Assembly: GCA_021162615.1 (NCBI GenBank) | Contig: JAGGYH010000080.1 | Location: forward strand, 34,899-98,898 | DNA length: 64,000 nt | Origin: Candidatus Aminicenantes bacterium | GTDB lineage: Bacteria; Acidobacteriota; Aminicenantia; Aminicenantales; Aminicenantaceae | Reading direction: 5' to 3' | Shown: positions 40,717-43,286 of the stretch, in pieces | How positions within the stretch are numbered: the first letter of the stretch is position 1 | How the letters are laid out: the number at the start of each line of letters is the position of its first letter | The notes under the pieces: generated by a model | What the model was told of the DNA's origin: nothing | The model's database searches: none | The model's input: only the letters and a program-made list of their open reading frames with translations | Translations under genes and position numbers: made by a program

Positions 40717-41577
40717 TTATTTAAGTGCATCAACAGCTGATATTATCTCTAAGAGTTCTCTTGTGATCGATGACTGCCTGATCTTATTCATCCTTAAGGT
40801 CAGGTCTTTTATGAGATCCTGAGCGTTTTTCGTTGCGTTCTCCATTGCCATCATCCTTGCCGCATGTTCAGAGGCAATGGATTCAAAATAAAAATGCCGG
40901 ATCTGGCTTTTGACATACAAAGGGAGTAATGTCTTGGCCAACTTCTCCCCTCCAGGCTCCCAATCATACGACATTTCCGGATGTTTTTCCTCATCCTCAC
41001 TCAGCTCAACAGGTAAGATCTTTGTTATGCTCGGCTTTGGTCTCAATATGGATTTGAATTCATTGTATACAATATAAACAGAATCACTTCCAGCAAACAG
41101 ATACTCCCGCACAACACTGTCCGTAATCTCCTCAAGGTCCTGCTCTGTGAATTTTTGTACATTCCCTGAATACCTTTTCATGACTTCAAAATCTTTATTA
41201 TTGAAAAACACAACGGCCTTTTTCCCCAATAAAACCAATTTTACCCTGCATTCCTTTGCTTTTTCCTCCAGAAAGCGAAATCCCTTTTCCAGCAGATTAG
41301 AATTAAGCGCTCCGGCTAATCCCTTATCCGAGGTCAGGACCAAAACAAAAACTCTCTGTTCTGCTCTTTTCTCAAGAAGAGGATGCAGGGAACGTTTGAG
41401 GTGGGAAGTTACAGATGAAATGAGCTCCGGATAAGTATGCCAATAGGGCCTTCCCTCAAAGACATCTCTTTGGGCTTTTTTGAACTTCGCTGAAGACACT
41501 GTCTTCATAGCCCGGGTTATCTGCTGCGTATTCTTTACGCTTTTGACTCTTCTTCTCAGTTCTATTAGTTGCGTCAT
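40717..41577 (-). CDS. atpG: F0F1 ATP synthase subunit gamma
   Basis: N-terminal [24 protein letters not shown] and C-terminal [15 protein letters not shown] gamma signatures. Confidence 0.9.
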
Positions 41578-43286
41578 TTTTTATCTTTTTTTGTCTTTCC
41601 GCTCTTTTTTGGCTTTTTTCCTTTTTTCCCAGTTTTCTTTGGCTTTTTCTCCTTGCTCTTTTCTGGCAAATCAGCTTTTTCTTCCGGCTCGTCTTTTTTC
41701 TCTTCCTTATCGGATGTTTCCTCATCCGGCTCTTCTTTAGCCTCTTCCTCTTTTTTAAACTCTTTGTCAAAATCGATCAATAAGGACTCTATGGCTTTGT
41801 CTATTTCCGGAGTTATTTCTTTTTTGTCAGCTATTTGTTTCAGAACGTCCGCTCCCTCTTTTTGAGCATATTCAAAAAGTCTCTGCTTGTATTCCTTGAT
41901 ATCTTCCACCTTATACTTATCCAAAAAACCTCTGTTGCCGGCATAAATGACCAATATCTGCAGCCCTACAGACAGAGGTTTGTACTGGTCCTGCTTTAAG
42001 ATCTCGGTAAGCCTTTCCCCTCTGTCAAGCTGGGCTTGACTCGTTCTGTCCAGTTCGGTCCCGAACTGCGCGAATGTTACCAGCTCCCTGTACTGTGCCA
42101 GGTCCAGCCTTAATTTTCCAGCCACCTGTTTCATCGCCTTTATCTGGGCGTTTCCTCCCACACGTGATACAGAGATTCCAATATTGATAGCCGGGCGCAC
42201 ACCCGCATTAAAAAGCTCGGGTTCAAGGTAAATCTGCCCGTCAGTAATGGAAATAACATTGGTCGGAATGTATCCGGAGACATCCCCGGCCTGGGTCTCT
42301 ATGACCGGAAGGGCGGTAAGAGAGCCTCCACCCATTTCTTCTGAATACTTCGCAGCTCTCTCAAGAAGCCTGGAGTGCAGATAGAAAACATCCCCTGGAT
42401 AAGCCTCCCTTCCGGGAGGCCGGCGCAAGAGGAGAGATATCTCTCTATAGGCGGCCGCATGCTTTGAAAGGTCATCATACACGACCAGAGCGTGTTCTCC
42501 CTTATCCCTGAAATACTCACCGATGGCACAACCGCTGTAAGGAGCCAGATACTGAAGGGGAGACGGGTCGCTGGCCGAGGAAGAGACGACTATGGAATAG
42601 TCCATAGCCCCATGGTCTTCCAGGGCTTTGACAATAAAAGCAATAGTGGAATTCTTCTGCCCTATGGCTACATAGATACAGATGACATCTTTTCCTTTTT
42701 GATTGATGATGGCATCAACAGCTATAGCTGTTTTCCCGGTTTGCCGGTCCCCGATAATCAGTTCTCTCTGCCCTCTGCCAATAGGGATCATACTGTCAAT
42801 GGACACCAGGCCTGTCTGCAGGGGTTCTTTCACCGGCATGCGTTCAATGACACCCGGAGCAAGCCGCTCTATATTCATTTGATTTTCAGATTTTATAGGG
42901 CCTTTTTCATCCAGCGGCCTCCCGAGAGGGTCCACAACCCTGCCTATCATGGCCGGGCCTGAAGGGACCTGCATGATCTTGTGTGTGCGCTTGACAATAT
43001 CCCCTTCTTTAATAAGTTGACTCTCTCCCAGAAGAACGACCCCCACATTGTCTTCCTCAAGATTGAAAGCCAGTCCGAACTCTTCATTCGGAAATTCCAC
43101 TAACTCGTTGGCCATCACATGATCCAGCCCGTAGACCCTGGCGATACCATCTCCTACAGAAGTCACGGATCCTACTTCCTTTATATTGATATCCGTCTCG
43201 TATCCCTCGATCTGCTGCTGAATGATTCTACTTATTTCATCTGCTTTTATTTCCATTTTTCTATCCTTCTTTGATTTTCTCTCCAA
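41574..43286 (-). CDS. atpA: F0F1 ATP synthase subunit alpha with a C-terminal acidic-then-lysine-rich tail of about 55 aa
   Basis: P-loop GDRQTGKT and the alpha signature region. 570 aa versus the usual about 505. Tail ...[59 protein letters not shown]. Confidence 0.9.

Follow-up and report, generated by a model that had tools for sequence, protein, structure and literature searches.

The atpA gene and its tail

The stretch of DNA analysed here, hereafter the window, comprises 64,000 nucleotides (nt) of contig JAGGYH010000080.1 (positions 34,899 to 98,898, assembly GCA_021162615.1) from Candidatus Aminicenantes bacterium. It carries an ATP synthase gene cluster on its minus strand in the order atpF'-atpF-atpH-atpA-atpG-atpD-atpC, and the alpha subunit encoded by atpA ends in a long, highly charged tail. 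Few proteins are as strongly conserved as F1 alpha, and in bacteria lineage-specific extensions of this subunit are known in only a few cases. The analysis makes it very probable that the tail is a genuine, translated, lineage-specific appendage of F1 alpha. It would have arisen once, by in-frame expansion of glutamate and lysine codons at an ancestral KEEKE terminus, and would have been kept as a probably disordered polyampholyte with two charge blocks, selected for its composition, length and charge order and not for its sequence.

The atpA gene occupies 41574..43256 on the minus strand and encodes 560 amino acids (aa) followed by a stop codon, an assignment that draws on Pfam, identity at NCBI and existing gene calls. 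The longest form of its open reading frame (ORF) begins at a TTG at 43286 (41574..43286, minus strand) and encodes 570 aa, the length given in the initial annotation. Translation almost certainly begins at the ATG at 43256 (MEIKADEIS...), giving the shorter protein, because this codon lies 4 nt past the atpH stop and is used in the NCBI, JGI and ENA gene calls. Residue numbers in the tail refer to the 560-aa form. The core of AtpA matches PF02874, PF00006 and PF00306 (Pfam, E values of 1e-15 to 7e-83), with the last match ending at about residue 504 of the 570-aa ORF. These N-terminal beta-barrel, nucleotide-binding and C-terminal helical domains, together with the ATP synthase neighbours in the order atpH-atpA-atpG-atpD-atpC, are those of an F-type alpha subunit and bear out the identification of the gene made earlier. 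A protein search with AtpA found 100% identity to the NCBI entry 'F0F1 ATP synthase subunit alpha [Candidatus Aminicenantes bacterium]'.

The tail consists of an acidic block followed by a polylysine block. Its length was measured against tail-less relatives, which end 4-6 residues past a conserved F(D/N)KxF; on this basis the extension is about 55 aa long (41577-41741), and it is 60 aa long when counted from residue 501 (41577-41756). The acidic block (aa 501-530; 41667..41756, minus strand) has a net charge of -9 by translation and charge count. The polylysine block (aa 531-560; 41577..41666, minus strand) has a net charge of +14 and is rich in lysine, proline, glycine, serine and threonine, with KKPKK-type motifs. 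It contains 17 lysines against 3 aspartates or glutamates in 30 aa, a clustering of basic residues of the kind that defines polybasic membrane-binding motifs, and it is the most lysine-dense 30-aa stretch across all six frames of the window. Lysine makes up 8.3% of the window proteins, and at that frequency the binomial probability of 17 lysines is about 2e-11 per 30-aa segment and about 2e-6 when corrected for all six-frame segments. The reading frame runs on into the start of atpG, as had been reported: the atpA stop codon TGA and the atpG start codon ATG overlap in the sequence ATGA (41574..41577, minus strand), which is a translational-coupling junction.

The tail is not an artefact of sequencing. 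Twenty contigs, assembled with several programs from at least seven independent samples in ENA and JGI, encode exactly this 560-aa protein, and the 4-nt overlap with atpG is present in every case. Strain variants (99% identical) all have 560 aa and differ by substitutions only, with no insertions or deletions. In the most divergent of them, five of the eight substitutions are within the tail. Because the same protein recurs on 20 contigs and its strain variants are free of insertions and deletions, a sequencing or frameshift artefact is excluded, and the original view that no frameshift is involved stands. The region does contain homopolymer runs of 6-7 adenines, where a frameshift or assembly error might create a false extension. 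The chance of this is negligible, since apart from the recurrence in independent samples the tail is conserved in eight other species-level genomes of differing DNA sequence, and the tail-less relatives, with only 1-2 nt between atpA and atpG, offer no spacer for read-through.

Distribution and origin of the tail

The tail is confined to a single clade of Aminicenantes. The comparison set consisted of the loci, with flanks, of 80 GTDB species representatives of Aminicenantes, labelled L001 onward. An acidic-then-polylysine tail is present in eight of these (L001-L008), and the window represents a ninth tail-bearing lineage. About 70 of the 80 stop 4-6 residues past F(D/N)KxF, typically with KEEKE. 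The tail had been called unusual, and it is absent from these roughly 70 representatives and from all solved alpha subunits, where the one extension found is the unrelated one of mycobacteria. The initial annotation had also allowed that the tail might be ubiquitous and known in this lineage. It proves to be universal within its own clade and not in the phylum, and no paper describing it was found.

Protein databases gave a similar division. Among clusters built at 90% identity, the first 32 with at least 86% identity to AtpA contain proteins of 551-578 aa, with the tail in every cluster examined, and the next clusters, with 83% identity or less, contain proteins of 505-519 aa. When the last 121 aa were used as an exhaustive HMMER query against 1.84 billion representative proteins, only the query's own fragment cluster matched through the tail. 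Full-length AtpA is merged at 50% identity in this set, which therefore says nothing of how the tail is distributed. Short extensions rich in alanine, glycine, glutamine and glutamate were seen on a few unrelated alpha fragments. A word-indexed search with the tail alone returned nine candidates, none of them significant, a result with no bearing on like tails of other proteins.

The phylogeny of the core indicates a single gain. In a neighbour-joining tree built on the first 500 residues (the core) of alpha, the window and L001-L008 form one clade, and all nine tips of this clade have the tail. In the sister lineages L010 and L017+L021, just 5-11 residues follow residue 500. The tail thus has one origin, and none of the sampled descendants has lost it. 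Other alpha extensions among the 80 representatives are found in L032 (65-69 aa, rich in glutamate), L068 (25 aa) and L024 (18 aa). The L032 tail (atpA at L032:1608-3317) was gained separately and is net negative.

To judge from the sequences of relatives, the tail arose in frame, by insertion or expansion of about 170-200 nt. An origin by read-through of a spacer between the genes was rejected because the distance from the atpA stop to the atpG start is only 1-2 nt in the tail-less relatives. The ATGA overlap is found in seven of the eight species representatives of the tail clade. Graded growth of the ancestral terminus can be seen among relatives, which end in KEEKE, KEEKEEKE, KEEEKEEKEE and KEDVEEKEEKEVQE. 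The acidic block also has a weak vestige of a threefold 21-nt tandem repeat (Tandem Repeats Finder, 41676-41738, period 21, 62% matches). Slippage of purine-rich glutamate and lysine codons is the likely source of the tail.

Probable disorder and selection on charge order

The drop in model confidence, the low hydropathy and the scattered prolines suggest that the tail is probably best described as a disordered two-block polyampholyte. An AlphaFold2 model made from a 37-sequence alignment was poor overall, with a mean predicted local distance difference test (pLDDT) score of 38, and only the contrast between the C-terminal domain and the tail is usable. The C-terminal domain (aa 430-508) has pLDDT values of 60-87, while residues 509-560 have values of about 28 and no helix or strand, which agrees with the disorder that had been proposed. 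Mean Kyte-Doolittle hydropathy is -2.8 for the tail in the window and -2.5 to -3.05 across the tails. Strong polyampholytes in the scheme of Das and Pappu have a charged fraction above 0.35, low hydropathy and no predicted secondary structure. The tails fall in this class by charged fraction, hydropathy and the charge-segregation index kappa, the AlphaFold2 part of the assignment coming from the poor model.

Composition and charge order have been kept in the tails while most sequence identity has been lost. In the core of atpA, four-fold degenerate sites are identical at a frequency of 0.39-0.42 between the window and L003, L004, L005 or L007, and of 0.27-0.29 with outgroups. Synonymous sites across the tail clade are close to saturation, and a neutral stretch would be randomised over such a distance. 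The tails nonetheless remain open over 45-71 aa, with charged residues making up a fraction of 0.58-0.77 and with no more than six hydrophobic residues (0-6 per tail, with one in the window). In 15 of 15 tails the proximal half has a net charge between -9 and +3 and the distal half between +7 and +21, and the acidic-to-basic polarity exceeds that of shuffled sequences at P<0.05 in 13 of them. Kappa is 0.24-0.39, about twice the shuffle mean of 0.12-0.17. The independently grown tail of L032 is well mixed (kappa 0.06), and expansion alone therefore does not yield charge blocks. Apart from a terminal K(E/D)(D/N)KK, no motif is conserved among the tails. The pattern fits a disordered region under selection for composition.

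Other subunits of F1

The beta subunit also has a lysine-rich appendage, and the epsilon subunit is short. The atpD gene (39196..40692, minus strand; Pfam) encodes a beta subunit of 498 aa, of which residues 1-31 (40600..40692, minus strand) form a lysine-rich N-terminal extension seen in the translation. The start is preceded by a good Shine-Dalgarno sequence, GGAGAG, just 5' of the ATG, which lies 24 nt after the atpG stop. Lysine-rich beta extensions of 8-55 aa are found in nearly all Aminicenantes loci and are absent only in L077 and L079. The extensions of L017 and L067 (54-55 aa) have tandem repeats of the KQTKKT or KTQKTK type, which suggests ongoing expansion by slippage. L032 has the most lysine-rich beta extension seen, with 21 lysines or arginines in 41 aa. 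The beta subunit retains the acidic EELSEED loop in its translation.

The atpC gene (38903..39199, minus strand) encodes an epsilon subunit of 98 aa that matches PF02823 only; it has the beta-sandwich and lacks the inhibitory C-terminal helical hairpin. An epsilon of 142 aa is found in L077 and L079, and one of 91-101 aa in every other Aminicenantes locus. L077 and L079 are the most divergent loci, and they combine a long epsilon with the lack of a beta extension, which suggests that the two traits vary together. Loss of the epsilon C-terminal domain is thus almost phylum-wide and is not correlated with the alpha tail. The gamma subunit, encoded by atpG (40717..41577, minus strand; PF00231), has 286 aa. 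No clade-specific insertion was found in it, as its length is 286-288 aa in tail-bearing lineages and has a median of 288 aa in tail-less relatives.

No other segments in the 51 ORFs of the window are as dense in lysine as the alpha tail and the beta extension, which are attached to strongly acidic cores (net charge -17 for alpha and -23 for beta). The only other lysine-rich stretch in the window is an FtsK linker with 13 lysines in 30 aa (63284-63373, plus strand). Nearly the whole phylum has the beta extension and lacks the epsilon C-terminal domain, which suggests that the F1 of Aminicenantes has shifted generally toward charged disordered appendages.

Comparison with known systems

The closest parallel to the tail is the alpha extension of mycobacteria, the one bacterial extension of alpha known to have been characterised, which is the main brake on ATP hydrolysis in those organisms and a drug-target epitope. 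In mycobacterial epsilon the inhibitory C-terminal domain is reduced or absent, and the two systems are alike in this respect. Both alpha extensions are lineage-specific, begin right after (E/D)F(K/D)K.F, and are attached just after the last helix of the C-terminal domain, within reach of the central stalk. The mycobacterial extension (residues 514-548) suppresses ATP hydrolysis, with residues 533-545 docking into gamma (PMC8698299), and a 14-residue gamma insertion is believed to work alongside it (PMC10049701). It has about 35 aa and a specific docking segment, whereas the Aminicenantes tails have about 55-70 aa, a polylysine block, a charged fraction of about 0.7, and neither a conserved motif nor a matching insertion in gamma. 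Among solved alpha subunits only the mycobacterial ones align past the core, and the phmmer alignment to 7jg5_A is confident only to chain residue 513, after ...EFKKGFQ. No homology to mycobacterial alpha 514-548 was detected by phmmer, which aligned a few low-posterior residues past the core. Judged by sequence, the Aminicenantes tail is not a member of the mycobacterial extension family, and by analogy it may or may not work in the same way. The comparison with mycobacteria made in the initial annotation thus holds for the position of the extension and for the epsilon subunit without an inhibitory domain. It does not extend to sequence, docking motif or gamma insertion, and about 70 relatives with a short epsilon have no tail.

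Basic residues of the epsilon C-terminal domain contact the DELSDED motif of beta. The Bacillus PS3 enzyme showed increased ATP hydrolysis when beta DELSDED or the last helix of the epsilon C-terminal domain was mutated (PMC5990651). The alpha tail resembles that domain in its positive charge and its place toward the bottom of F1, from which it could act on an acidic DELSEED-type loop of beta. It differs in being a disordered tail of the stator, whereas the epsilon domain is a folded hairpin of the rotor. In Acanthamoeba a 118-residue C-terminal extension of beta wraps alpha and contacts the peripheral stalk (PMC13632647), and it demonstrates that extensions of core subunits can add contacts that stabilise the stator. 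That extension is helical, folded and on beta, while the one described here is predicted to be unstructured, is highly charged and is on alpha.

Polybasic clusters that bind membranes include the MARCKS effector domain and the K-Ras4B tail, which usually act with a lipid or hydrophobic anchor. The alpha tail shares with them a run of at least eight lysines, a net positive charge of the cluster and an acidic lipid surface within reach, to which it would bind without specificity of sequence, and it differs in having no lipid or hydrophobic anchor. Histone-H1-like tails of bacteria are found in chlamydial Hc1, the C-terminal domain of mycobacterial HupB, and AlgP. Like these, the alpha tail is of low complexity, rich in lysine, proline, glycine, serine and threonine, and has KKPKK-type motifs. 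It differs in being poor in alanine, in following an acidic block, and in belonging to a membrane enzyme. The Pfam search (E <= 1e-3) matched only the three AtpA domains and no linker-histone or bacterial H1-like family. The term histone-H1-like that had been applied to the tail is therefore apt for its composition and not for any domain.

Possible functions of the tail

A regulatory or anchoring role, as proposed in the initial annotation, is conceivable, and the tail may tether F1 to the membrane. The tether proposal is tentative and is put forward as possible rather than probable: the lysine block would bind acidic phospholipids around Fo and provide three flexible tethers per complex. We infer the mechanism, and the tether geometry and the lipid binding of polybasic segments rest on established knowledge. 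The alpha C-terminus is at the membrane-facing end of F1, and polybasic clusters bind acidic lipids. The acidic block of 25-30 residues could serve as a spacer, kept extended by charge repulsion and spanning the height of the stalk. The distal 17-30 lysines would then bind an anionic surface without sequence specificity, and this surface would most probably be the acidic phospholipid headgroups around Fo. The three electrostatic tethers might in this way hold or position the alpha3beta3 stator at the membrane.

Several observations weigh against a selected, membrane-binding tail. The main argument is that the lysine-rich beta extension is on the membrane-distal crown of F1, from which reaching the membrane is implausible; if both appendages share a partner, that partner is therefore not the membrane. 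Membrane anchors are often accompanied by a hydrophobic or amphipathic element, of which the tail has none, and in the window the net charge of the whole tail is only +5. The AlphaFold2 model, being poor overall, is weak evidence for disorder. In the tail clade (L001-L008), each of the gamma, delta, b, b' and epsilon subunits is more basic than its counterparts in the other loci, with median net charges of +13 against +4 for gamma and +13.5 against +6 for delta, which hints at lineage-wide compositional drift toward lysine. The open frame could also be enforced by termination-reinitiation coupling to atpG and not by a function of the peptide.

The last two points belong to an explanation in which the tail is a largely neutral low-complexity expansion. 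Slippage in A/G-rich codons would have produced it, re-initiation on atpG at the ATGA would hold its frame open, and its composition would reflect purine-rich, lysine-biased mutation at a low guanine-plus-cytosine (GC) content. The graded expansions of KEEKE in relatives, the independent expansions in L032, L068 and L024, and the very fast turnover of the tail (five of the eight substitutions in the most divergent strain variant) agree with this, as do the GC of the tail clade (0.39-0.45) and its basic gamma, delta, b and epsilon subunits. In tail-less relatives the atpG start is preceded by GAAGGA, and in the window nothing like a Shine-Dalgarno sequence is seen immediately before it. Coupling to atpG could explain the open frame, but not the composition or the block order. 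The block order, kappa and length range are kept in nine of nine lineages despite the near-saturation of synonymous sites, and the mixed tail of L032 indicates that slippage alone gives no blocks. Low GC was rejected as a sufficient cause, since about 27 lineages with a GC below 0.45 have no tail. A codon test for avoidance of poly(A) in lysine runs pointed weakly in the same direction in L005 and L006 (P about 0.05, in stretches of eight lysines), was not significant elsewhere, and is not relied on. Neutrality seems rather unlikely. A role in hydrolysis latency, with the polylysine block acting on the acidic EELSEED loop of beta, on gamma or on epsilon to brake rotation in the hydrolysis direction, in place of the epsilon inhibitory domain, has a comparably low probability. 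The extension begins at the same alpha position as that of M. smegmatis (7jg5_A, residue 513), which suppresses hydrolysis by docking into gamma (PMC8698299). The epsilon subunit is reduced to its beta-sandwich, the EELSEED loop is retained, and the PS3 mutations in either partner raised hydrolysis (PMC5990651). However, an equally short epsilon is found without an alpha tail in about 70 Aminicenantes species, and compensation therefore does not require the tail. The tail also has no sequence similarity to the mycobacterial extension and no conserved motif or predicted helix for specific docking, and gamma has no clade-specific insertion to compare with the 14 residues of mycobacteria (PMC10049701).

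The partner could instead be a polyanion of the cytosol, such as nucleic acid, polyphosphate or nucleotides, bound by the alpha tail together with the beta extension, or the ATP synthases could cluster through their complementary charge blocks. Either is distinctly improbable. Lysine-rich appendages at both ends of F1 do suggest a partner other than the membrane, and the composition is like that of H1-like DNA-binding tails. Blocky charge favours intermolecular electrostatic association, and the raised kappa of the tails would suit clustering. Against polyanion binding, there is no match to a DNA-binding or H1 family in Pfam, there is no sign in these uncultured bacteria that F1 lies close to the nucleoid or to polyphosphate, and the net charge of the window tail is small. 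A wider scenario, similarly speculative and given little credence, takes the membrane tether as one of several outcomes. Aminicenantes would have rebuilt the regulation or anchoring of F1 on charged disordered appendages, losing the epsilon domain and gaining the beta extension, and then adding the alpha tail in one clade. The result would be an electrostatic tether to the membrane or to a polyanion, or a gate on hydrolysis that depends on salt, pH or energy state.

The tail is apparently undescribed, and it joins a known class of lineage-specific extensions of F1 core subunits. Literature searches found no description of a lysine-rich alpha tail, of the beta N-terminal extension or of an Aminicenantes ATP synthase. 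The tail is a second, independent extension at the attachment point used in mycobacteria, with a very different chemistry. If it is functional, rotary ATPases can be regulated or positioned by the non-specific electrostatics of disordered tails, and the tail would be a natural module for transplantation. If it acts together with the beta extension and the shortened epsilon as an electrostatic device, this would represent a mode of ATP synthase control that has not been described in any organism. Aminicenantes are typical of energy-starved, anoxic subsurface habitats. If the tail is neutral, it is a clean case of a low-complexity expansion held open by translational coupling. The phylum-wide pattern of a polybasic beta N-terminus with an epsilon that lacks the regulatory domain may be a more significant lead than the tail itself.

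Other features of the window

The peripheral stalk genes lie upstream of atpA on the minus strand. They are atpF' (44362-44778; PF00430), atpF (43781-44365; PF00430) and atpH (43261-43803; PF00213), the last encoding 180 aa as called on sister contigs. The b subunit encoded by atpF has 194 aa (phylum median 195) and an extra hydrophobic N-terminal segment (MMSDKNVFWILLFIIPIFLCMSPEN...) before the usual membrane helix. The cluster begins with b' (44778) after a 458-nt gap (44779-45236). No ORF resembling a c subunit was found across the 64 kilobases with phmmer and the c subunits of E. coli and PS3. Because the window has no c-subunit gene, the Fo a and c genes must lie elsewhere and the operon is split.

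At the other end of the cluster, the 3' end of atpC overlaps the downstream methyltransferase gene by 32 nt. Three further ORFs overlap the region of the alpha tail, at 41456-41770 (minus strand), 41480-41740 (plus strand) and 41569-41865 (plus strand). They were rejected as low-complexity by-products of the purine-rich coding stretch, being rich either in phenylalanine, serine and leucine or in lysine and arginine. The FtsK-like ORF that contains the third lysine-rich stretch lies at about 62660-64000 (plus strand) and runs off the end of the window, and its cytoplasmic N-terminus is rich in lysine (MAQRKKPLRKTKKTKKESQNRIKRD).

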